32,000 nucleotides of DNA, taken from contig NC_017448.1 in NCBI RefSeq assembly GCF_000146505.1, positions 1,920,001 through 1,952,000 of the forward strand, given 5' to 3'. Within the stretch, counting starts at the first letter, position 1. Each line of letters opens with the position of its first letter. A program made the position numbers and the translations under genes. This document shows, piece after piece, positions 15,392-23,998 of this stretch. The notes under the pieces are model-generated. The model saw nothing but the letters and a program-made list of their open reading frames with translations, was not told where the DNA came from and did no database searches. This DNA is from Fibrobacter succinogenes subsp. succinogenes S85. Its GTDB lineage: Bacteria > Fibrobacterota > Fibrobacteria > Fibrobacterales > Fibrobacteraceae.

Positions 15392-17332
15392 CTAAACTTC
15401 CACGCCTTTTTCCTTGAGCACCGCCATCACCTCGTCATACGGGAGCGGCTTCGAGAAATAATAACCCTGCACGCGGTCGCATCCGATTTCCTTCAAAAAG
15501 TCTAGATGTTCCTTTATCTCCACACCTTCCGAAAGCGTGCCAATATGCAATAGCTTAGCCATTTCCACAATGGCGCGGATAATCACCTTGGACTTTTCCG
15601 AGAAGTTCCGCAAGAACATCATGTCAATTTTCAAAAAGTCGAAATCGTAATCTTTCAGCACGTTCAACGACGAGAATCCCGAACCAAAGTCATCCATCCA
15701 GACTTCAAATCCGTCATTTTGGAAACGCGTCACCTGTTCACGGATATAGCCATCCTCGTCACCGTCCAGCACGGATTCCGTAATCTCGATATGGATCATC
15801 TCATGCGGCACGTTATATTCTTTAGTCAACCGCGTGAGTTCCTTATAAATGTCACTCAGCTTAAAGTCCAGACGCGAAAGGTTGAACGAAATCGGAACGC
15901 ACTTGTTCCCCAAATTCGTTTCCACACGGTATTTTTCGCAAATTTTCTTGAGCACGAACAAGTCCAATTTCTGGATCAAGTGAGCGTCTTCTAAAACGCC
16001 TACAAAATCAAGCGGCGGCAAGAATCCGTGCTCCGGGTCATCCCAACGGGCAAGCGCTTCAAAGCCACAAAGCTTGTTCGTATTGATATCCACGACGGGC
16101 TGATAAAAGACCTTGATGTATTCCTTTTCTACAGCCTCGTCAATGTGTGCAATCAAGTACATTTTCAAGCGTTCACGGGCGCCCATTTCATCGGCATAAA
16201 CGGCGACATATTCATCGTAGACGCCCTTGGTCGTCGCTTCGGCAAGGCGAGCCCGCATAAAGCAACGTTCTACGTTTTCATTTTCAACACGCTGCACATA
16301 CACGCCCGCCTTGAGCTCTAGCACACCTTGAGTCGAGAAGCTACGAATCTTGTCATGCGCTTCCTTGATTTTTGCCTTCATCCCGGAGGCATCACCTACA
16401 ACGCGGAACGTATCGCACGACACATGCGTCACATAGCGCTCGCCAAACAGCGTCTTAAACGTATCCGCCATGAACTTCAGCGCACCGTCACCTTCTTCAA
16501 AGCCAAACCTCTCGTTAAAGGCCTTGAAATTTTCCAAATCAAAAGCGACAAACGCATAGCGTTTCCTCGGGTTCCTAAAGAGCAAGTCCTGCACGTAGTT
16601 TGAGAACAGAAGCGCATTCGGGAGCCCCGTCAGCTTGTCATGGTTACGCGCAATTTCCGCCTGTTGCGTCAAGCGCACCGTCCTGAAAATAAGCTTCACC
16701 GCAATCGTAAGCGTAAGCCAGAAGAACCACGATACAAAGACAAGGTAATTCAAAAATTCAGGAGTTACCTCAATCATGCGCACGCACACATACATGGCGA
16801 GGTTCACTAGCATACTAAATAACGTGACAAAACCCAAGAACCCAAAGCGCGCAAAGATTTGCGTGTTACGGACAAATAAAAGTTCATTCCAAAGGAGTTT
16901 CCACCAAATGAAAATTGCAACCAAGTTTACTAGGGCAGCACCAACCTGCGTCTTGCCCACCACCATGCCGAGGTAACCCACACCGACAGATGCCGAAAGC
17001 ATGAACAGCGATGGAGACCAGTGGATCGAAAGCACCTTCCCAAAAACAAAAATCGCCACAGGAATCAGAATGACGCGGCTCATGTAGTCCACTATCACGT
17101 CGAGCAATAACGGAACCTCGCCCATCATGCACCCAAGCAAGTGCATCATCCCGTGATAAATCAAGTCCGAATAAATCATGTAGGGGGTCAGCGAAAAAAC
17201 GGCACCCCAAAAAAGAACATTCTTCAAGTTCTGTTTTTCACCAAGCGCAGCCAGCGTAAAAAGCAAAAACCCGCTCGCCAACAGCGACGGAAAAAAGAAC
17301 ACATGATTTGCGTAATCCAGAAAATTTATCAT
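15392..17332 (-). CDS. Membrane-bound c-di-GMP phosphodiesterase: polytopic N-domain, degenerate GGDEF, intact EAL
   Basis: About 220 aa of TM helices. GGDEF-domain fold (KLTGLPN.., FNERFGFEEGDGALK), but the GG[DE]EF position reads SCDTF. EAL motifs are intact (EALARW, NLS, EITES, DDFGSGFSSL, KID, EGVE, QGYYFSKP). Confidence 0.9.
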   Translation of the reverse strand: MINFLDYANHVFFFPSLLASGFLLFTLAALGEKQNLKNVLFWGAVFSLTPYMIYSDLIYHGMMHLLGCMMGEVPLLLDVIVDYMSRVILIPVAIFVFGKVLSIHWSPSLFMLSASVGVGYLGMVVGKTQVGAALVNLVAIFIWWKLLWNELLFVRNTQIFARFGFLGFVTLFSMLVNLAMYVCVRMIEVTPEFLNYLVFVSWFFWLTLTIAVKLIFRTVRLTQQAEIARNHDKLTGLPNALLFSNYVQDLLFRNPRKRYAFVAFDLENFKAFNERFGFEEGDGALKFMADTFKTLFGERYVTHVSCDTFRVVGDASGMKAKIKEAHDKIRSFSTQGVLELKAGVYVQRVENENVERCFMRARLAEATTKGVYDEYVAVYADEMGARERLKMYLIAHIDEAVEKEYIKVFYQPVVDINTNKLCGFEALARWDDPEHGFLPPLDFVGVLEDAHLIQKLDLFVLKKICEKYRVETNLGNKCVPISFNLSRLDFKLSDIYKELTRLTKEYNVPHEMIHIEITESVLDGDEDGYIREQVTRFQNDGFEVWMDDFGSGFSSLNVLKDYDFDFLKIDMMFLRNFSEKSKVIIRAIVEMAKLLHIGTLSEGVEIKEHLDFLKEIGCDRVQGYYFSKPLPYDEVMAVLKEKGVEV

Positions 17333-17486
17333 TGCTATACCCTAGAGCATCATAAATATAATGTATAATCCCATCCCGTGTACGCAGATGGTGAAAAAAC
17401 GCACATTTTGGGCGCTATACATTGGAATAAATACTAGGATTTACTTCACTTTACTAAAATCAAGCCTATCATCAACCGGAATCGGT

Positions 17487-17711
17487 TCATTCTGGTTTTG
17501 AACATTGACGTCCACCGGCTCGGGCGTACCAAGCTTCCGTCGGAGGCGCAGGCATTTTTGCCATTTGAGCGGACTGGTCATCGCGGCCATCCTTTCTCAG
17601 CTGCATTTCATCTGAATTATTGCCGACGCCGATTACAGCAGGGCAGCCCCTCGGATTATCGCACGCACAACCTAAAACAAACAAAGCAAAAGCAATTAAA
17701 ACAAATTTCAT
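17487..17711 (-). CDS. Small hypothetical lipoprotein (about 74 aa)
   Basis: MKFVLIAFALFVLGCACDN lipobox taken from the second ATG of track ORF 17487..17726. No recognisable domain. Confidence 0.4.
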   Translation of the reverse strand: MKFVLIAFALFVLGCACDNPRGCPAVIGVGNNSDEMQLRKDGRDDQSAQMAKMPAPPTEAWYARAGGRQCSKPE

Positions 17712-17833
17712 GATTTTAATATACAAAAGAAGTCAAAAATAGACAAATAGTCAACGAAAATCGAGCATAACGAGCTCGGCAGTAAGGACAAAATTTTTAA
17801 ATTTGGCGCGAAAATCTTATTTGGGAGCAATGT

Positions 17834-20800
17834 ATGAAATCCAAATTACTCTTAACAACATCTATCTTCACGCTTTCCATGCTCTATGGCTGCCTTGACG
17901 AGGTAAGCGAAGCAAGCGCCCCGGACTTGTCCGAACTCGCCTGCAAAACAGAACCGCTAGACGACGATAGCGGTCTCAAGATTATCTGCGGCGGTGATTC
18001 CGTAGGTGTCGTTTTGAACGGCAAAGACGGAAAAGATGGAGCCGATGGTAAAGATGGCAAAGAAGGCAAATCTGGTGCCGACGGCAAAGACGGATCATCC
18101 TGCTACGTCACCGAAAACGCAGAAATCAACGGCTACGACGTGTTCTGCGGCGATGAAAAAATCGGTTCAATCGTGAACGGCAAGGATGGTGCCGACGGTA
18201 AAAATGGTGAAAACGGCGCCAACGGTAAGGATGGCGACAAGGGTGACGATGGCAAGGACGGTAAAGACGGAAAAGATGGAACTTCTTGCCGCATCGAAAC
18301 CAACAAGGATATCAATGGTTACGATGTTATCTGCGGTGACAAGAAAGTTGGTCAGCTCCTTAATGGAAAGGATGGCGAAAACGGCAAGGATGGTAAAGAT
18401 GGCAACGACGGTTCCTCTTGCTCGGTCGAAGTAAACGATGACATCAACGGTTTCGACGTCGTTTGCGCAGGCAAGAAGGTCGGCGAACTCCGCAACGGTA
18501 AGGACGGCCAAGACGGAAAGAATGGTAAAGATGGCAACGACGGTTCCTCTTGCTCGGTCAAAGTAAACGATGATATCGATGGTTACGATGTCGTTTGCGC
18601 AGGCAAGAAGGTCGGTGAACTCCGCAACGGTAAGGACGGCCAGGACGGAAAGAATGGCACCGATGGTAAGGATGGAACCTCCTGCACGGTCGAAGTAAAC
18701 GATGACATCAACGGTTTCGACGTCGTTTGCGCAGGCAAGAAGGTCGGTGAACTCCTTAATGGAAAGGATGGCGAAAACGGCAAGGATGGTAAAGACGGTA
18801 ACGATGGTTCTTCCTGCAGCGTTGTAGAAAATAAGGATATTAACGGTTTCGATGTCATCTGCGGCGACAAGAAGGTCGGAGAGCTCCTCAACGGAAAGGA
18901 TGGCGCTGACGGCAAGAACGGTACCGATGGTAAGGATGGCAACGACGGTTCCTCTTGCTCGGTCAAAGTAAACGATGATATCGATGGTTACGATGTCGTT
19001 TGCGCAGGCAAGAAGGTCGGTGAACTCCGCAACGGTAAGGACGGCCAGGACGGAAAGAATGGCACCGATGGTAAGGATGGAACTTCCTGCACGGTCGAAG
19101 TAAACGATGACATCAACGGTTTCGACGTCGTTTGCGCAGGCAAGAAGGTCGGCGAACTCCGCAATGGTAAGGACGGCCAGGACGGAAAGAATGGCACCGA
19201 TGGTAAAGATGGAACGTCCTGCTCTGTCGTAAAGAACGAAAAGGTCAATGGATACGAAGTCTACTGCGGTACCGAATTCCTCGGATTCCTCACTAACGGA
19301 AAGGATGGCGCTGATGGCAAGAACGGTATCGACGGTAAAGACGGAACTTCTTGCACTGTTGAAGAGAACAAGGAAATCGATGGCTATGACGTCATCTGCG
19401 CTGACAAGAAGGTCGGTGAAATTCACAACGGTAAAGACGGTCAAGACGGTAAGAATGGTACCGATGGTAAAGACGGAACGTCCTGCTCTGTCGTAAAGAA
19501 CGAAAAGGTCAATGGATACGAAGTCTACTGCGGTACCGAATTCCTCGGATTCCTCACTAACGGAAAGGATGGCGCGGATGGCAAGAACGGCATTGACGGT
19601 AAGGACGGAACTTCTTGCACTGTTGAAGAGAACAAGGAAATCGATGGTTACGACGTCATCTGCGCAGACAAGAAGGTTGGCGAGCTCCATAACGGTAAGG
19701 ACGGCCAAGACGGAAAGAACGGCACTGATGGTAAGGACGGAACCTCTTGCCGTGTTGAAGTAAACAAGGATATTGACGGTTACGACGTTATATGCGGCGA
19801 CAAGAAGGTTGGCGAACTCCGAAACGGCGCTAAGGGCGAAAACGGCAAGGATGGTAAAGACGGTAACGATGGTTCTTCTTGCACGGTCGAAGTAAACGAT
19901 GACATCAACGGTTTCGACGTCGTTTGCGCAGGCAAGAAGGTCGGCGAACTCCGCAATGGTAAGGACGGCCAGGATGGAAAGAATGGCACCGATGGTAAGG
20001 ATGGAACTTCCTGCTCTGTCGTAAAGAACGAAAAGGTCAATGGATACGAAGTCTACTGCGGTACCGAATTCCTCGGATTCCTCACTAACGGAAAAGACGG
20101 TGCTGATGGCAAGAACGGTATTGATGGTAAGGACGGAACTTCTTGCACTGTTGAAGAGAACAAGGAAATCGACGGATACGATGTCATCTGCGGTGACAAG
20201 AAGGTCGGCGAGCTCCGCAACGGTAAGGACGCAGTCCTTCCTTCCTCCAGCAGCATCGCTTCTTCAAGCAGTGCAGCACCTTCTAGCAGCAGCAAGGTTT
20301 CCTCTAGCAGTGTCACACCGTCTAGCAGCAGCGTCGCTTCCTCTAGTAGCGTAACGCCCTCAAGCAGCAGCGTAGCCTCCTCTAGCAGCGAAACCCCGTC
20401 TAGCTCCAGCGTTGAACAGCTCAGCGAAAAGTGCAAAACGCTCCGCGCCACAACAGACGTATTCAATTCCCTCTACGACGTTCTCGGTTGCACCCGCTCT
20501 GATGAAAAGGTCGCCATCATCTTGCGCCACGCCCAACGCGACATCAACAAATACGGCGACGACGATGGCCTCATTGACGTCGGTAGAGCACAGGCAAAGC
20601 AAGTCGGCGAAAAACTCAAAAAGCTCAACCTCGACGACTTCTATTACATGTACACCAACGTCAAGCGCACCGCAGAAACCGCACAAATCATCGCCGTGAA
20701 CAAAGGCGAAAACGTTTCGTCAAACATTAACGACTGGCACAAGCATAGCATCGAAAACCTTACTGAAATCAACCAGAACCTGAAGGAATCCTGGTATGTC

Positions 20801-21256
20801 AAACCCAATCAAAGTGCAAGCAACTGCAAGGGTAACGCCAGCTGGGGCTGGAGTTCTTATTCCAAAATTGCCTACCAGGAATACGACAACGATAACAACC
20901 GTCAAAACTGCGAAAATGCATTCTACCCCATCGCTGACAGAGTTAACGATTTCATCAACACCTACTTCACATACGAACAAATGCACAAGTACACCTTGGC
21001 CATTTCGCACGACCAATACCTTGTACCGTTCGTCATTACAATCAGCAACAAACAAATCCACGATGACGTTAAAAATTCCAAATACGATCTCCGCTTCCAC
21101 AAGCATGATCGCGACATCAATTGGAATCCGGATTTTAACTATTGGATCAACTACCTCACCGGCGTAGTACTCATCGTTGATTCCGACAACAGCGTTATAA
21201 AGCTCCCCGTCAAAGCACTAGACGACGGATTCCTGCGCGAATACAAAAATCCATAA
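17834..21256 (+). CDS. Giant repetitive surface lipoprotein: ~16 (Gly-X-Y run + Cys-loop) modules, poly-Ser linker, C-terminal histidine-phosphatase-like domain
   Basis: Lipobox SMLYGC. Repeated NGKDGxDGKNGxDGKDG(T/S)SC-x14-C-x(3)KVGEL modules. SSSS(V/A/T)PSSSS linker at 20233-20410. C-terminal ILRHAQRD.., VGRAQAKQVGEKL, KRTAETAQI and AISHDQ match the RHG-type histidine phosphatase pattern. Confidence 0.85.
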   Translation: MKSKLLLTTSIFTLSMLYGCLDEVSEASAPDLSELACKTEPLDDDSGLKIICGGDSVGVVLNGKDGKDGADGKDGKEGKSGADGKDGSSCYVTENAEINGYDVFCGDEKIGSIVNGKDGADGKNGENGANGKDGDKGDDGKDGKDGKDGTSCRIETNKDINGYDVICGDKKVGQLLNGKDGENGKDGKDGNDGSSCSVEVNDDINGFDVVCAGKKVGELRNGKDGQDGKNGKDGNDGSSCSVKVNDDIDGYDVVCAGKKVGELRNGKDGQDGKNGTDGKDGTSCTVEVNDDINGFDVVCAGKKVGELLNGKDGENGKDGKDGNDGSSCSVVENKDINGFDVICGDKKVGELLNGKDGADGKNGTDGKDGNDGSSCSVKVNDDIDGYDVVCAGKKVGELRNGKDGQDGKNGTDGKDGTSCTVEVNDDINGFDVVCAGKKVGELRNGKDGQDGKNGTDGKDGTSCSVVKNEKVNGYEVYCGTEFLGFLTNGKDGADGKNGIDGKDGTSCTVEENKEIDGYDVICADKKVGEIHNGKDGQDGKNGTDGKDGTSCSVVKNEKVNGYEVYCGTEFLGFLTNGKDGADGKNGIDGKDGTSCTVEENKEIDGYDVICADKKVGELHNGKDGQDGKNGTDGKDGTSCRVEVNKDIDGYDVICGDKKVGELRNGAKGENGKDGKDGNDGSSCTVEVNDDINGFDVVCAGKKVGELRNGKDGQDGKNGTDGKDGTSCSVVKNEKVNGYEVYCGTEFLGFLTNGKDGADGKNGIDGKDGTSCTVEENKEIDGYDVICGDKKVGELRNGKDAVLPSSSSIASSSSAAPSSSSKVSSSSVTPSSSSVASSSSVTPSSSSVASSSSETPSSSSVEQLSEKCKTLRATTDVFNSLYDVLGCTRSDEKVAIILRHAQRDINKYGDDDGLIDVGRAQAKQVGEKLKKLNLDDFYYMYTNVKRTAETAQIIAVNKGENVSSNINDWHKHSIENLTEINQNLKESWYVKPNQSASNCKGNASWGWSSYSKIAYQEYDNDNNRQNCENAFYPIADRVNDFINTYFTYEQMHKYTLAISHDQYLVPFVITISNKQIHDDVKNSKYDLRFHKHDRDINWNPDFNYWINYLTGVVLIVDSDNSVIKLPVKALDDGFLREYKNP
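18017..20232 (+). repeat. Coding tandem-repeat region (132-141-nt modules, with higher-order 264-nt and ~405-nt units)
   Basis: Modules read directly. For example 19201-19463 vs 19464-19727 vs 19993-20230, and 18531-18755 vs 18936-19160, which are near-identical. Confidence 0.95.
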
Positions 21257-21267
21257 CAAACAAGCTT

Positions 21268-21295
21268 CAAAGCCCCCGCCCGGGGGCTTTTTTCG
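21268..21295. terminator. Bidirectional terminator between convergent genes
   Basis: agcccc (21271-21276) pairs with ggggct (21283-21288), followed by tttttt; A-rich on the other side. Confidence 0.75.
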
Positions 21296-21299
21296 TATT

Positions 21300-23930
21300 C
21301 TACTTTTCCAGTGTTTTTATCAACGAGTCTAAACGAGAAGACAAATGTTTTGCACCGACAAAGCTCAGATGGTCGCAATCATTCGCCATATCATCCGTAT
21401 AGTCGTGCATCCCAAATTTATTTTCGTCCACCATTATAAAATGCGGATAGACTTGCGCTAAAGAATCAAAATAGGCCGCCGTTTTTAAAGCCTGGCTACG
21501 CTTTGTCCCATGCCGCCCAAAGCTGCCCGTATTCGCATACCCAGGAGACTGCGGGTAAACAAGCCCAATAATCTTAAAGCCCTTGTTTTGCGTACTGTCA
21601 ATAAAGGCCGTCAGGCTATCCACACTATTGTCATAATTTTTCTGCCAACTCGTTTGCATAACAGTATCATACTTAATTTCCGGCTCATCACTCCAACAGT
21701 TAGGTTCCAACATCAACAATCCTCTCATATTGACGTAATTCAAGGAGTCGGCTCCTGTATAGCAAACATTAGCATCAACAAAGCGAACAAAAGATTGCGG
21801 CAGCCCATTTCTCCAAAAATTATGGTTCCTGTCATAAAAATAACCCGGTGCCTGCCCAAACGCAAATTGCATTCTACTAGCCTTAGAATTGTGCATCAAG
21901 TCATACGATATTTCAACAATCAAATACTTTAAATTTTTAGCATGCGGAATAAAATAATTATCCATCAAATAGAGAGCCGCCCAAATATTTCCACCAACGT
22001 ATCCAAAATTAAGGGCCGATTTTGATATCTGCGTTGGATCAAATCCTCTTTCAGTACGGGATGTTCCTACGGCAATCACTTCTAAAGAATCGCGTTCGTC
22101 CCAAAACATGCGCATTTTCAAGCTTGCCGACCTTTCACCGCCCTGATAAATAGGATCCCAATACAAGCCTGCACTATCCAAATCAAGGTCTTTATTTCCA
22201 AACGTATTCTTAGGCATCACCCACATATTAGGGTGCCACAAATCTCCGCCTTCAACCAATTCGGTTACACTAGAATCAAGAACATTCACTAGCGCAAGTT
22301 TTGCATGTTCTCCTTGAACATTGACAAGCGATACAACAGCCAGATTGTCGCGATTCACCCATTCAGAATGATCAAACGAAAAACCTTTCGGTGCAGGAAT
22401 TGCTCGTACCATTTTGCCACTGCTATCCGCGACAAGCAAGCGTTCATGCACCCCATATTTATCACTTGCAAAAGCCCTCCCTGTAGAACCGCCAAAATCC
22501 AAAAACAATGTCTGATTCAAGCCATCCTTCGAAAGTGACGCATTGCAAGCCTGCTCACCATTATACCATACATCATCTTTTCCATTCACATGCACGCGCA
22601 ACCTACGCGCTCCCGATACAGCACGGTTCAGGCTTTGCGAAACACCGCTGTGATACGCACCATCCATCAGCTTCTTCGCTTGTCCAAACTTTCCATTTGA
22701 GAAAGGAACAATCCATGTCCCGCGAGCCAAGAACTCCGCATCATCGCTATTATCGGATGCATCGTCGACAAACACAATCGAAGTATCGCCACCTTCACTC
22801 ACATGCCAACGTGGAATCACAGCCTTTTCAACATCAAGCTTTACAAGGCCACCACCATTTGCATCCAAGTTTCTTACATATACCGAAGAGGGGCCATCAA
22901 CACCTTCCATCCCCGTGCAAAAAGCAACCTTGCTTCCATCAGGCGAAATATCGGGATGAAATACTTGAACCGTATCAAAAATTTCTATAGCACCTGGACT
23001 TCTGCCATCATAATCAATATAAACCAAATTGCCGGTCACATTGTTTCTAAAAGCAAGTTTCGAATGGTATGTTCCCACCTTCTCACGAACATCCGACGAG
23101 AAAGCCTTCATCTTCATATAATTTGTTGCAACACCATTTTGCTCATCCAGTCCAGTGGCTTCCGGAATTTTTCCAAACACCAAACGAAATCCTATATACC
23201 CAGATAACGTTGAAGGGGTTACAGGATAAACATCTCCACGAGTATTCAGATTCATTTCAGAAGGAGCCTGAACCATCATACCCCCCTTGACGACTTTTTC
23301 AAGCGAACCAAACCAATCATTCGTCAGTTCAAGAGCGTTACCTGCCAAATCACAAAAGCCAATCGAATCAGGGAACGCACACGGTTCATGGAGTTCAAAA
23401 TTTGAATTTGTAGAATTCCAACTATACTTTTCAGGATTCCACGACTGCGACGCGGCCATCACCCATTCCGCTTCGGTCGGTAAACGAAAACCTTCTACAT
23501 CAGAACGAACTTCAAGTCCTTCTAAATTAATGCAATGACCTTTCGCATTAAAAAAGGGCCTATGGTACGCATAAACCGAATCATATCCAAACAACCTGCT
23601 ATACGCATTTGCAAAAAGGACAACATCATAATAGGACACATTAGTTACAGGCAACTTATCATTTGCACAATCCAATGCAAAGTACCAGTCCTCATCCTTG
23701 GCAATTTTATCGAATTCAGAGCATGTCACTTCATGAATTCCTAGCGAGTAAGCGGAAGAAGCACCATTAGGTATAATTCTCATCATTCCTTCACGAAGAG
23801 AATCCAACACGATTACAGGAGCAGACTCCGAATCGGCACTCTCAGCCGGATTTTTACGTCCATCTCCATGCGAATCCGAGCATGACGCAAGAGCCACGCA
23901 TAAAAGGAAACACGCAAACCATCTTTTCAT
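21300..23930 (-). CDS. Multidomain lipoprotein: FGE-sulfatase (SUMF1-like) domain, TolB-like beta-propeller segment, C-terminal SGNH/DUF1574-like region (resembles Fibrobacter TIGR02171 paralog family)
   Basis: The start is taken at MKRWFACFLLCVALASCSD (ATG 23930), because the upstream extension runs through the moxR terminator. FGE-type motifs GFRLPTEAEW, DLAGNALELTNDW, GFRLV. PDISPDGSKVAF propeller-like repeat. C-terminal VIAVGTSRTERG .. DCDHLS (GDS / DxxH-like). The TIGR02171 assignment is from memory. Confidence 0.75.
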   Translation of the reverse strand: MKRWFACFLLCVALASCSDSHGDGRKNPAESADSESAPVIVLDSLREGMMRIIPNGASSAYSLGIHEVTCSEFDKIAKDEDWYFALDCANDKLPVTNVSYYDVVLFANAYSRLFGYDSVYAYHRPFFNAKGHCINLEGLEVRSDVEGFRLPTEAEWVMAASQSWNPEKYSWNSTNSNFELHEPCAFPDSIGFCDLAGNALELTNDWFGSLEKVVKGGMMVQAPSEMNLNTRGDVYPVTPSTLSGYIGFRLVFGKIPEATGLDEQNGVATNYMKMKAFSSDVREKVGTYHSKLAFRNNVTGNLVYIDYDGRSPGAIEIFDTVQVFHPDISPDGSKVAFCTGMEGVDGPSSVYVRNLDANGGGLVKLDVEKAVIPRWHVSEGGDTSIVFVDDASDNSDDAEFLARGTWIVPFSNGKFGQAKKLMDGAYHSGVSQSLNRAVSGARRLRVHVNGKDDVWYNGEQACNASLSKDGLNQTLFLDFGGSTGRAFASDKYGVHERLLVADSSGKMVRAIPAPKGFSFDHSEWVNRDNLAVVSLVNVQGEHAKLALVNVLDSSVTELVEGGDLWHPNMWVMPKNTFGNKDLDLDSAGLYWDPIYQGGERSASLKMRMFWDERDSLEVIAVGTSRTERGFDPTQISKSALNFGYVGGNIWAALYLMDNYFIPHAKNLKYLIVEISYDLMHNSKASRMQFAFGQAPGYFYDRNHNFWRNGLPQSFVRFVDANVCYTGADSLNYVNMRGLLMLEPNCWSDEPEIKYDTVMQTSWQKNYDNSVDSLTAFIDSTQNKGFKIIGLVYPQSPGYANTGSFGRHGTKRSQALKTAAYFDSLAQVYPHFIMVDENKFGMHDYTDDMANDCDHLSFVGAKHLSSRLDSLIKTLEK

Positions 23931-23961
23931 GACTAAATCGCTAAACCGCATACTCACAAAA

Positions 23962-23998
23962 TAACAAAAAACAACGTCCCGCAAGGCGTTGTTTTTTT
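23962..23998 (-). terminator. Rho-independent terminator of moxR
   Basis: aacaacg (23970-23976) pairs with cgttgtt (23987-23993). On the minus strand the stem is followed by ttttttgttatttt. Confidence 0.6.

Follow-up and report, generated by a model that had tools for sequence, protein, structure and literature searches.

A Fibrobacter succinogenes S85 lipoprotein in which a periodic collagen-like stalk is fused to a histidine-phosphatase domain

Fibrobacter succinogenes S85 is a rumen bacterium that degrades cellulose. In the window analysed here, a 32,000-nucleotide stretch of its chromosome, positions 17834..21256 of the forward strand hold a single open reading frame with an ATG start and a 1140-aa product, exactly the coordinates and length given by an earlier, sequence-only reading. 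The public S85 annotation lists it as Fisuc_1207, "phosphoglycerate mutase", and as FSU_1668, "putative lipoprotein". Its upstream neighbour is divergent and its downstream neighbour convergent, and Fisuc_1207 is therefore a single-gene unit. An intrinsic-terminator-like hairpin (21269..21300, forward strand; a 9-bp stem including 6 GC pairs, followed by a run of T) begins 13 nt past the stop codon and is common to Fisuc_1207 and the convergent downstream gene; the search found one such hairpin, against 0.1 expected. Transcription is low-level, with values of 5.8-8.1 compared with about 10 for pgi (PMC6204037 supplement), and detection of FSU_1668 in the cell-envelope proteome is weak (coverage 4%, score 6.5; PMC6851124 supplement), its location being listed there as 'Unknown' (PMC6851124).

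The product consists of a lipobox, an orphan Cys loop, 16 modules containing collagen-like runs, a Ser-rich linker and a 276-aa C-terminal domain. This order of parts, a lipoprotein whose periodic collagen-like and Cys-loop stalk leads through a Ser linker to a histidine-phosphatase-like domain, had been proposed before and was borne out by sequence parsing and by the Pfam searches that the sequence-only reading had suggested, which on the whole protein matched Collagen (E=2e-30, 13 stretches) and His_Phos_1 (PF00300; E=1.5e-7). We are highly confident of this architecture and of the fold of the C-terminal domain. The N-terminus (MKSKLLLTTSIFTLSMLYGC) is a signal peptide (17834..17893, forward strand) read from the sequence as MKSKLLLTTSIFTLSMLYG followed by the cysteine of an L-Y-G-C lipobox, and Cys20 is predicted to be lipidated and to start the mature protein. 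The lipobox pattern is kept in orthologs (ALNGC, MLTGC, MLSGC, MLGGC), and a lipobox is present in all inspected homologs with a complete N-terminus and in most carriers of stalk modules. It is followed by an acidic segment, LDEVSEASAPDLSEL (17894..17938), and a CLDxVTEA or CSDxx pattern recurs at this place in the homologs; the Asp/Glu residues at +2/+3 past the lipid Cys resemble the surface-export signal of Bacteroidota (FCB-group) lipoproteins. The orphan 'base' loop, A-C-KTEPLDDDSGLKII-C-GGDSVGVVL (17939..18016, aa 36-61), has no Gly-X-Y run before it, and a near-identical base loop occurs in many other Fibrobacter and Fibromonadales lipoproteins, seven of which were noted individually. 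At the other end of the stalk, the Ser-rich linker (NGKDAVLPSSSSIASSSSAAPSSSSKVSSSSVTPSSSS...; 20219..20425, aa 796-864) is a degenerate SSSS-x-x-x repeat, with 37 Ser among the 70 residues 796-865. The 39 cysteines of the protein are distributed over the lipobox (1), the loops (34) and the C-terminal domain (4).

The stalk array occupies 18017..20218 on the forward strand (aa 62-795). Parsing confirmed the earlier estimate of about 16 modules of proline-free, charged Gly-X-Y triplets (6-12 per module) followed by S-C-x14-C and KKVGEL: 16 were counted, each made up of N-(Gly-X-Y)n, S-C-x14-C and a third strand that reads KKVGELx or TEFLGFLT, so that together with the orphan loop there are 17 C-x14-C loops. 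From module 1 to module 8 the runs contain 9, 12, 6, 6, 6, 6, 7 and 6 triplets, and all of modules 9-16 contain 6; the 16 runs are thus uninterrupted stretches amounting to 106 triplets, with 6 triplets in 13 modules and 7, 9 or 12 in the others. Proline is absent from all 16 runs, X is Lys in 53 of the 106 triplets and Y is Asp in 69, and the stalk as a whole carries 94 K, 112 D and 44 E. Its best NCBIfam match is the Scl2/SclB model NF038329, at 94 bits (family cutoff 325), and the product belongs with the bacterial collagen-like surface proteins. No Pfam model covers the Cys loop. When a loop-run-loop unit was modelled with AF2 as a monomer, each loop comprised three beta strands (pLDDT 73-84) and the Gly-X-Y run was left disordered (pLDDT <50). 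The hairpin turn of the loop follows N-x-x-[IV]-[ND]-G, with Lys at the third position in some modules. The suggestion that the Asp-rich runs or loops bind Ca found no counterpart in the profile searches, in which none of the TSP3, EF-hand or RTX families matched Fisuc_1207 at E<=10.

Tandem Repeats Finder reported periods of 132 and 264 nt in 18251-20231 (scores 1261 and 1570), DNA identity between modules ranges from 48 to 98%, and no exact repeat is longer than 149 bp. A recent higher-order duplication with a 264-nt unit comprises module pairs 9-10 and 11-12 (19163..19690), and this pair type recurs as modules 15-16 (19955-20218); modules 9, 11 and 15 are mutually 92-98% identical in DNA, and modules 10, 12 and 16 88-90%. 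Unequal recombination between the 132/264-nt repeats would readily alter stalk length. Identical stretches of up to 149 bp also raise the question, posed for the repeat region by the sequence-only reading, of whether misassembly produced the array or its module count, and contigs from short-read metagenome-assembled genomes do often break in this gene, five of them beginning inside it. However, the window is part of a finished chromosome sequence, that of S85 (CP001792.1), modules of 48-98% identity with a 149-bp maximum exact repeat are resolvable with Sanger-length reads, neither the reading frame nor any Cys pair is broken across 2.2 kb, and independent assemblies hold 3 to at least 10 modules of the same kind. 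We therefore regard the repeat as real and give an artefact a negligible chance.

Orthologs at the same locus, with conserved GGDEF-EAL and MoxR neighbours, differ in module number, as the earlier reading had thought worth checking: compared with 16 modules in S85, there are 8 in L001, 3 in L002, 10 in L008 and at least 8 in L012. The same module type is found in orthologs from independent assemblies, and some same-locus orthologs contain other module types. More distant homologs (L009, L010, L013, L014, L016 and P0016-P0027) have no collagen modules, a Ser-rich linker alone lying between lipobox and domain. All named relatives of the C-terminal domain are from Fibrobacter.

The stalk itself is far more widely distributed. 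A search with the stalk module retrieved 1608 cluster representatives at E<=1e-3 and 304 at E<=1e-10, and among 72 module-bearing proteins examined the C-terminal heads were Fib_succ_major in 52, Lcl_C in 7 and His_Phos_1 in 3. In 77 cluster-representative carriers, 111 of 149 inter-loop segments are perfect (Gly-X-Y)n, with 2-8 triplets in most relatives and only 2-4 in some runs. The stalk is therefore a generic, length-variable cassette of Fibrobacter lipoproteins that is mostly fused to Fib_succ_major, and the perfect periodicity of these 111 segments, the predicted beta-meander loops and the Scl2-like composition show it to be a real, selected structure. The stalk, shared by some 300 protein clusters, is thus not peculiar to Fisuc_1207; what is distinctive in this protein is the rare phosphatase cargo and the record number of modules. 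Our literature search found no paper describing this cassette, a design that many Fibrobacter lipoproteins have in common.

The C-terminal domain (20426..21253, forward strand; aa 865-1140) was assigned by Pfam, AF2 and Foldseek to the branch 1 fold of the histidine phosphatases. In isolation it matched His_Phos_1 at E=9.5e-9 (35.6 bits vs cutoff 21.7), and its AF2 model has a pLDDT of 92.5 and a pTM of 0.92, with predicted disulfides C867-C886 and C998-C1026. Foldseek returned 179 PDB matches at E<=1e-3; among the matches listed, all are branch-1 histidine phosphatases, including RosC, PGAM5, TIGAR, PspA, BPGM and PhoE, except ranks 43 and 45, a TFIIIC subcomplex chain and a Francisella histidine acid phosphatase. 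The domain is divergent: identity to the solved branch-1 members is 11-15%, with TM-scores of about 0.45-0.6. With hhalign, E. coli GpmA (1E58) aligned at 85% probability across the N-terminal 64 columns.

The RHAQR motif (20525..20539; R898, H899, R902) is invariant in 20 and in 15 family members. R898 and H899 align with R10/H11 of BPGM and GpmA and lie at the C-terminal end of strand 28-34 of the AF2 model, and H899 is the predicted phospho-accepting nucleophile. The second phosphate-pocket arginine, R945 (20666..20668), is likewise invariant and aligns with R62 of BPGM and GpmA. In the S-H-D motif (21005..21013), H1059 and D1060 are both invariant, including in members that are 33-40% identical; H1059 stands between strand 189-194 and helix 196-206 of the model, the canonical strand-His-helix position, and is predicted to be the second catalytic His, with D1060 as a candidate general acid. 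The roles of these two residues are drawn from invariance and topology, because the C-terminal half of the domain has no sequence-level match to solved phosphatases. The Glu general acid of branch 1 is not strictly kept, the acid at position 985 being absent in one member (L011) of the family alignment. Of the four signature strings singled out earlier, those with RHAQR, KRT and SHD do hold invariant residues, whereas the Arg of VGRAQAKQ is not conserved; only its G and Q are, matching the branch 1 L-x3-G-x2-Q motif. The catalytic Arg/His set, whose loss had been named as fatal to the phosphatase assignment, survives in the family alignment, R898, H899, R902, R945, H1059 and D1060 being invariant down to 33% identity.

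Like the members of branch 1 (PF00300: dPGM, PhoE, PspA, RosC, PGAM5, TIGAR, SixA, Ais/PmrG), the domain has the fold, the RH(G/A) nucleophile motif ending strand 1, the L-x3-G-x2-Q motif, the second Arg and the second His in the strand-His-helix position. Unlike them, it combines Arg at His+3 (RHAxR) with an HD pair that never varies in the family, two features that elsewhere mark branch 2. It also has a helical cap insertion of about 70 residues and an extension at the N-terminus, each with a predicted disulfide, and it is part of a lipoprotein on a stalk. The branch 2 histidine acid phosphatases and phytases (PF00328, e.g. E. coli AppA) share with it the local RH[GA]xRx and HD motifs and an extracytoplasmic location, but its structural neighbours are overwhelmingly from branch 1. 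The description 'phytase-like' was accordingly dropped: the domain matches branch 1 (PF00300, and RosC, PGAM5, PspA and BPGM by Foldseek) and had no match to His_Phos_2, and hhalign to AppA gave a probability of 2.7%, covering a 17-residue motif only.

Taken together, we infer a phosphomonoesterase that is tethered to the envelope, probably displayed at the surface, and mounted on a generic Fibrobacter spacer of variable length, a reading that we consider reasonably probable. An extracytoplasmic location is favoured by the lipobox of the protein and its homologs, by cysteines that all fall into putative pairs and by the detection of FSU_1668 in the envelope proteome. After cleavage by signal peptidase II, the protein would hang from Cys20, and the base loop, the 16 modules and the flexible Ser-rich linker of about 70 residues would hold the phosphatase away from the membrane. 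Judging from the conserved residues and the model, the domain is rather probably an active phosphatase, which would cleave phosphomonoesters hydrolytically in the two steps usual for the superfamily: H899 would attack phosphorus in a pocket of R898, R902, R945 and H1059, with D1060 or the E/D at position 985 as general acid, and the phospho-histidine intermediate would then be hydrolysed. Its likely role would be to free phosphate from organophosphates, either at the surface of the cell or further out, in the glycocalyx or on particles of plant material; on surface exposure itself our judgement is evenly balanced.

Each 26-residue loop may fold into a beta meander of three strands, with the C-x14-C disulfide closing the first hairpin. 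It should be kept in mind that disulfide formation is not guaranteed at the surface of an organism that is strictly anaerobic and lives in a highly reduced habitat. The short Lys/Asp-rich runs would most likely act as Scl2-like, charge-stabilised triple-helix segments of a parallel homotrimer, making the stalk a jointed rod of about 100 nm. We propose this triple helix tentatively, at somewhat less than even chances, and runs of six triplets without Pro are very short for a stable helix, which counts against a trimer. A rather unlikely alternative is a monomeric tether resembling beads on a string, in which the runs are never triple-helical and serve as extended, polyproline-II-like charged spacers between disulfide-stapled mini-domains; the stalk would then be a flexible leash, like the Ser-rich linkers of the shorter homologs. 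Runs of six triplets in Fisuc_1207 and 2-8 in most relatives, their lack of Pro and the low pLDDT of the run in the monomer model all suit such a tether; no histidine phosphatase is known to be a trimer or to need to become one, and five of the homologs with Ser-rich linkers only reach the same end, so that a rigid rod is not required for function. However, a mere spacer needs no Gly at every third residue, while all 16 runs keep it without exception, as do the relatives' 111 of 149 segments, and every change in length is by whole triplets; in addition, the composition is that of the triple-helix-forming Scl2, and heads of the Lcl_C type, trimeric in Lcl, ride the same cassette.

The enzyme might also face inwards and modify the envelope, as Ais/PmrG does with the heptose(II)-phosphate of the LPS core, without scavenging external phosphate. 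Diderm lipoproteins are by default oriented toward the periplasm, the 'Unknown' location in the proteome study is compatible with this, and there is a weak similarity to the NCBIfam PmrG model (E=9e-7, 28.5 bits) among other branch-1 models; yet that score is far under the cutoff of 170 and no better than those of PhoE-like or dPGM models. A 734-residue stalk and 70-residue linker, which would measure about 90-125 nm if extended or helical, greatly exceed the width of the periplasm, the same cassette carries Fib_succ_major, inferred to be extracytoplasmic (PMC4704652), and the acidic residues past the lipid Cys point outwards if they do act as the export signal. We therefore judge a periplasmic phosphatase improbable. 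More improbable still is an adhesin whose stalk and/or domain binds a phosphorylated glycan, the plant cell wall or Ca2+-bridged polymers, the domain being a pseudo-enzyme or a phosphate-ester-binding module. In most proteins with this stalk the head is indeed lectin-like, either Fib_succ_major or Lcl_C, the stalk carries a high charge, and the collagen-like region of Lcl itself aids glycan binding (PMC11162425); nevertheless, no Ca-binding family was matched, and the invariance of the R, H, R, R, H, D set argues for retained chemistry.

Among the closest known systems are the Fib_succ_major lipoproteins (TIGR02145 / PF09603) of the same genus, which share the lipobox, the base Cys loop and the alternation of short Gly-X-Y runs with C-x13-15-C loops. 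They differ in a lectin-like head, in place of the histidine phosphatase found in 3 of 72 proteins, and usually have 1-8 modules rather than 16. The Fib_succ_major domain has been reported in 54 copies in S85 and listed with putative cellulose-binding proteins (PMC4704652). The collagen-flanked surface repeat CFSR (PF19079), of about 49 residues, aligns over its full profile (1-49) with one Fisuc_1207 module, at E=0.17 and 12.6 bits vs a cutoff of 27, a score that comes partly from the Gly-X-Y flanks; CFSR was not among the families found at E<=0.001 in the 72 module-bearing proteins.

Legionella Lcl is likewise envelope-associated and has a collagen-like stalk, whose repeat number varies among strains, and a globular head at the C-terminus (Lcl_C/DUF1566), a type of head that 7 of the 72 Fibrobacter cassette proteins examined also bear; its trimer and lollipop shape have been demonstrated experimentally (PMC11162425). 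Unlike Fisuc_1207, Lcl has a continuous Pro-rich 15-residue repeat (GPQGLPGPKGD(K/R)GEA) without Cys loops, an amphipathic N-terminal helix that replaces the lipid anchor, and a head that binds glycans and is not an enzyme. The streptococcal Scl1/Scl2 proteins (NF038329, NF038330) are bacterial surface proteins with a Pro-poor collagen-like region and charged GKD-type triplets, as in Fisuc_1207, and Scl2 forms a stable triple helix without hydroxyproline. However, their collagen region is single, long and without interruptions, they trimerise through an N-terminal V domain and are anchored by LPXTG, and they possess neither Cys loops nor an enzyme domain. In animals, ColQ-tailed acetylcholinesterase, C1q, collectins and ficolins use a collagen stalk to anchor globular heads and space them from a surface. 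These stalks differ from that of Fisuc_1207 in being long, Pro/Hyp-rich and uninterrupted or with a single kink. ColQ-acetylcholinesterase, an enzyme head on a collagen stalk, resembles Fisuc_1207 by analogy only, with no homology, and its enzyme is a separate polypeptide, whereas in Fisuc_1207 stalk and phosphatase are one.

Fisuc_1207 (FSU_1668) of Fibrobacter succinogenes S85 runs from an ATG start at window positions 17834..21256 on the plus strand and encodes 1140 aa, exactly where and as long as the sequence-only reading had it. Its N-terminus (MKSKLLLTTSIFTLSMLYGC) has a basic n-region (MKSK) and a hydrophobic core leading to L-Y-G-C20, which fits the lipobox [LVI][ASTVIY][GAS]C and is kept in orthologs; judged by this pattern, the protein is a lipoprotein, as had been claimed. 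Behind the lipobox lie a base Cys loop that is not preceded by a collagen run (aa 36-61; C37...C52-GGDSVGVVL), an array of 16 modules (aa 62-795), a Ser-rich linker (aa 796-864) and a C-terminal domain of 276 aa (aa 865-1140; window 20426-21253, plus strand). Each module consists of an uninterrupted Gly-X-Y run (six triplets in 13 modules; 7, 9 and 12 in the others), an S-C-x14-C loop and a strand KKVGELx, which reads TEFLGFLT in three modules. The runs comprise 106 triplets devoid of Pro, with Lys in 53/106 X positions and Asp in 69/106 Y positions. All 39 Cys residues can be assigned: one to the lipobox, 17 pairs to the loops and two pairs to the C-terminal domain. At the DNA level, Tandem Repeats Finder reported repeats at 18251-20231 with periods of 132 and 264 nt, and the module pairs 9-10, 11-12 and 15-16 correspond to a recently duplicated 264-nt unit. 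The Pfam Collagen profile (PF01391) matches the protein with E=2e-30 (104.6 bits; cutoff 27.2), and His_Phos_1 also scores above its gathering score, so that both Pfam families proposed beforehand were recovered. The architecture described is far beyond chance, and every element of the predicted module (about 16 copies, Pro-free runs of 6-12 triplets, S-C-x14-C and KKVGEL) was found.

Other domain assignments of the stalk were rejected. CBM53 reached E=2e-6 (28.4 bits) as a sum of weak repeat matches with no individually significant stretch, and the Pfam matches to Laterosporulin, Galaxin_repeat, IGFL, Carb_bind and Sublancin are Cys-spacing noise. The suggestion that the stalk might bind Ca found no support: single modules searched at E<=10, and the whole protein at E<=1, gave no match to TSP type 3, EF-hand or RTX repeat profiles. 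Nor is a DxDxDG-type ligand pattern conserved, the hairpin turn having D, E or K as its third residue depending on the module. The repeat array also contains long antisense and off-frame ORFs, the largest of 513 aa (18167-19708, minus strand) and several of 80-137 aa within 18186-20466. These ORFs are not genes; they arise from the repetitive GGN-AAR-GAY codon pattern, which also accounts for the flipped GC skew of +0.22 over 18001-20000.

The exact protein is encoded at CP001792.1:1,491,116-1,494,538 of the finished S85 chromosome. The tags of two neighbours, pgi (Fisuc_1204 = FSU_1665 = C9RQH1) and an AAA_3 ATPase gene (Fisuc_1209 = FSU_1670 = C9RQH6), are given in the supplements of PMC6204037 and PMC6851124, and the gene studied here is therefore Fisuc_1207 = FSU_1668 = C9RQH4. 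Existing annotations call Fisuc_1207 a "Phosphoglycerate mutase" and FSU_1668/C9RQH4 a "Putative lipoprotein". Because DNA identity between modules is 48-98% and no exact repeat exceeds 149 bp, a finished assembly is able to resolve the array, and an assembly artefact, which the earlier reading had named as a way in which it could fail, is very unlikely. The gene forms a single-gene unit, with a divergent gene upstream, a convergent gene downstream and a strong terminator-like hairpin 13 nt past the stop codon. Its expression values across conditions are 5.8-8.1, compared with about 10 for pgi (PMC6204037 supplement). Upstream, the divergent intergenic region of 500 nt holds an ORF of 74 aa (17441-17711, minus strand; a public gene call, by gene order apparently Fisuc_1206), which has no Pfam match and for which very low expression values of about 4-5 are given. 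Operon context was discarded as a clue to function, the neighbours (pgi, a GGDEF-EAL gene, a gene for an FGE-sulfatase lipoprotein and the MoxR operon) having no functional link. An 894-aa protein with an FGE-sulfatase domain (PF03781) and a lipoprotein-like N-terminus is encoded at 21300-23984 on the minus strand, between Fisuc_1207 and the MoxR gene in S85. By tblastn at E<=1e-10, it has no homolog at the syntenic loci L001, L002 and L008 of other genomes, so that its gene looks like a strain-specific insertion.

The stalk module is a general Fibrobacter cassette. An exhaustive profile search against 1.84 billion cluster representatives, using the loop-run-loop units of Fisuc_1207 only, matched 1608 representatives at E<=1e-3 and 304 at E<=1e-10. 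The best 150 matches are mostly lipoproteins with an identical loop pattern: behind the lipobox comes a base loop C-x14-C-GGDSVG, followed by (Gly-X-Y)n runs alternating with S-C-x13-15-C-x3-4-[VIL]G-x-[VIL]-x-NG loops, a pattern to which Fisuc_1207 conforms. In 77 cassette proteins, 111/149 inter-loop segments are perfect (Gly-X-Y)n runs with n = 2-25, and most of the remaining segments contain loop variants missed by the search pattern. The 72 cassette proteins with at least two loops carry mainly Fib_succ_major heads (PF09603/TIGR02145; 52 proteins), and further Lcl_C (7), His_Phos_1 (3) and OmpA (1) heads. Fib_succ_major, with 54 copies in S85, has been inferred to be extracytoplasmic in one paper, which also lists it among putative cellulose-binding proteins (PMC4704652). 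The stalk of Fisuc_1207 is common in the genus, and its phosphatase head is a rare cargo. No Pfam family covers the Cys loop; CFSR (PF19079) was considered for the module and rejected, scoring 12.6 bits (E=0.17) where 27 is the cutoff, and literature searches on CFSR found no work. Searches of the literature on Fibrobacter and collagen, and on the locus tags in main texts, returned nothing relevant, and we found no paper describing the cassette. The design may extend beyond Fibrobacter, since two lipoproteins on IMG/VR contigs (L018, 2653-3873; L019, 2950-3375) have similar DGKDG(T/S)SC...C...NG modules; the C-terminus of one of them resembles, by eye, a PA14 domain.

In several Fibrobacter genomes the syntenic position of the gene lies between a GGDEF-EAL gene and the MoxR operon, and a comparison at this locus answers the question, raised beforehand, of whether orthologs differ in module count. 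Against the 16 modules of S85 there are 3 in L002, 8 in L001, 10 in L008 and at least 8 in L012, in which the Gly-X-Y runs are much longer, while L007 has a mosaic stalk that includes a different type of module (GKSAFDIAKEKDPxLTVDEWLASLKG and a Cys hairpin). A homolog with two modules, P0011, is encoded on an 8.7-kb metagenome contig that lies away from this locus or is too short to place, and the distant family members L009, L010, L013, L014 and L016 have no modules and only Ser-rich linkers. Short-read contigs often break inside the orthologs. Thus, the phosphatase cargo stays constant, whereas the spacers vary strongly in length and are not even all of one kind. The other module type, NGxxGKSAFDIAKEKDPxLTVDEWLASLKG followed by a C-x12-C hairpin, was seen in L007 (251-2827), L005 (3-1052), P0009, P0012 and P0013; the motif also occurs in phage tail-fibre and collagen-like proteins. 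Its presence in Fibrobacter relatives means that stalk modules seem exchangeable among the phosphatase lipoproteins of the genus. The distant member L015 (4072-6840) has long Pro-containing collagen runs and, interspersed, a beta domain of a third kind (SPSVITVSLEGSEEHPNGGVMIISTYKDSEGNIKSDTTYVWNG), in three copies before the phosphatase domain. When L008, L001, L002 and L012 were compared with window 15392-21256, the phosphatase domain of L008 was 54-57% identical to that of S85 and its GGDEF-EAL protein 88.7%, while the respective values for L002 were 88% and 72%; this mismatch, which comes from very few genes, hints at allele exchange or strong diversifying selection at the locus.

The C-terminal domain is a member of branch 1 (PF00300) of the histidine phosphatase superfamily, by profile, by fold and by its N-terminal catalytic motifs, and the histidine-phosphatase-like assignment made from the sequence was therefore correct. 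His_Phos_1 scores 31.7 bits on the whole protein and 35.6 bits on the isolated domain (cutoff 21.7), the match covering profile positions 2-100 of 194 only. An AlphaFold2 model of the domain based on the family alignment has a pLDDT of 92.5 and a pTM of 0.92, and Foldseek found 179 PDB matches (E<=1e-3), aligned over 240-300 columns. The top matches listed are branch-1 histidine phosphatases, except those at ranks 43 and 45, and include RosC, a B. anthracis PGM-like protein, PGAM5, TIGAR, PspA, BPGM and PhoE; identity to these branch-1 matches is 11-15% and the TM-score 0.45-0.6. On its branch-1 fold the family carries local motifs typical of branch 2, the acid phosphatases/phytases, namely RH[GA]xR and HD. 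The phytase-like activity that had been considered can nevertheless be set aside together with branch-2 membership: PF00328 has no match in Fisuc_1207 at E<=1, and hhalign to a provisional AppA sequence gave a probability of 2.7% over a motif of 17 columns. Relatives of the domain form 27 protein clusters by domain search and 64 by family profile, every named one being from Fibrobacter. A scan of one genome per species yielded 16 phosphatase-family loci, each of them in a Fibrobacter MAG of rumen or horse-faecal origin. The search patterns came from the family itself, so that very distant relatives could be missed. Domain residues 116-188 form a mostly helical insertion of about 70 residues between the third and fourth core strands. 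It holds the conserved C998-C1026 pair, differs in length among family members (10-15 residues extra in P0012 and P0013), and in the model probably represents a substrate-specificity cap.

Six residues (R898, H899, R902, R945, H1059 and D1060) and four Cys are invariant in the family alignments, down to members 33-40% identical. R898/H899 align to R10/H11 and R945 to R62 of dPGM-type enzymes, both by hmmsearch against PDB sequences, including BPGM, and by hhalign against E. coli GpmA, whose sequence was verified against 1E58. This part of the catalytic Arg/His set proposed earlier holds in a proper alignment; the second His does not have the same footing. The C-terminal half of the domain had no sequence-level match to solved phosphatases, its profile giving chance matches only against PDB sequences, and a forced global hhalign to GpmA was meaningless (probability 0.2%). 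In the model, H1059 lies between strand 189-194 and helix 196-206, the canonical strand-His-helix position, and its invariance together with this topology makes it a candidate second catalytic His, comparable to H184 of dPGM. An acidic residue (E/D) at domain position 121 (aa 985; compare E89 of dPGM) is conserved in the 20 closer members; in L011, L015 and L016 it is displaced or missing. Because the branch-1 Glu is so loosely conserved in the family, the invariant D1060 is an alternative candidate for the general acid. A non-catalytic adhesin head, in keeping with the Fib_succ_major heads of most cassette proteins, is a much less likely reading. With its invariant residues, the domain is best seen as a divergent extracytoplasmic histidine phosphatase that is probably active.

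How the stalk is built is less certain. An AlphaFold2 monomer of one loop-run-loop unit has a pLDDT of 70.5, with values below 50 in the Gly-X-Y run. Each loop is predicted to fold as three beta strands (S-C-TVEVN, GFDVVC and KKVGELL), and the outermost positions of the first hairpin are taken by the two loop Cys, as would fit an intra-chain staple. Foldseek found no PDB match to this unit at E<=1e-3, so that, at that model quality, no solved structure can be recognised as a relative of the mini-domain. That the Gly-X-Y runs form a homotrimeric triple helix is a possibility to which we give somewhat less than an even chance. It is favoured by the strict periodicity of Gly, run lengths changing by whole triplets only, by the Scl2-like GKD composition (NF038329 being the best NCBIfam match), and by unequal run lengths per chain, which fit a parallel in-register trimer and not an intramolecular bundle. 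Lcl_C heads, moreover, share the cassette, and the Legionella protein Lcl has been experimentally proven to be a trimer with a collagen stalk (PMC11162425). Against it speak the shortness of the runs and their lack of Pro, the homologs that manage with plain Ser-rich linkers, and a phosphatase with no known need to trimerise, all of which would suit a stalk that is purely a flexible monomeric leash. A polyproline-II bundle formed within one chain, as in snow-flea antifreeze or phage gp38, is considered unlikely, since the runs of a single protein are of unequal length (6, 7, 9 and 12 triplets here; much more in L012 and L015) and the X and Y residues are bulky and charged and not small. The most far-reaching version of the trimer would be an undescribed segmented collagen: a parallel homotrimer of very short, Pro-free, Lys/Asp-stabilised helices (2-12 triplets), each held at its two ends by beta-meander nodes with disulfide staples, forming a jointed rod of about 100 nm that serves Fibrobacter as a length-tunable display scaffold. 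We consider this proposal as a whole rather unlikely.

Taken together, Fisuc_1207 is most likely, by prediction, an envelope-anchored phosphomonoesterase whose spacer is generic and variable in length. With His899 phosphorylated as an intermediate, it would free phosphate from organophosphates close to the cell surface or on plant particles. According to a rival reading, it would be a periplasmic, envelope-modifying enzyme of the Ais/PmrG type. FSU_1668 was weakly detected in a cell-envelope proteome (4% coverage, 4 peptides, score 6.5; PMC6851124 supplement). If helical, the stalk would measure about 90-125 nm (318 Gly-X-Y residues x 0.286 nm, with 2 nm assumed for each of 17 nodes), far beyond a periplasm, which favours surface display; we put the chances of surface exposure of the phosphomonoesterase at about even.

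Because the gene is already annotated and the stalk is common in the genus, what is new lies in the recognition of the cassette, its regular segmentation, its extreme expansion and the rare enzyme cargo. F. succinogenes is among the most effective cellulose degraders and, to our knowledge, has no cellulosome. An uncurated, common cassette between the lipid anchor and the heads of many Fib_succ_major proteins, which can carry an enzyme too, gives a definite hypothesis on how the surface layer of Fibrobacter is structured. If the segmented-collagen reading is true, the cassette would be the scaffold of dozens of surface lipoproteins, with Fib_succ_major lectin-like heads, Lcl_C heads or, as here, an enzyme, and repeat expansion and contraction would set the reach of the cargo through the glycocalyx towards the plant fibre. 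For collagen biology, runs of six triplets that lack Pro, are regularly interrupted and have small disulfide domains on either side would make a naturally minimal design for the nucleation and clamping of triple helices, of interest for collagen-mimetic engineering. The phosphatase constitutes a divergent, so far Fibrobacter-only clade whose substrate may matter for how phosphate is acquired in the rumen. Should the stalk prove to be no more than a flexible leash, and the enzyme an ordinary phosphatase, the gain would amount to little beyond a tidier annotation.

With respect to known systems, the domain has no real similarity to branch 2 other than the shared local motifs. Collagen-tailed acetylcholinesterase resembles Fisuc_1207 by analogy only and is not of the same family. 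Scl2/SclB (NF038329) matches with 94.4 bits, compared with a cutoff of 325, and Fisuc_1207 has a lipobox instead of LPXTG. Although it belongs to neither the Lcl nor the Scl family, Fisuc_1207 is like both in the stalk-and-head working principle of bacterial collagen-like proteins.
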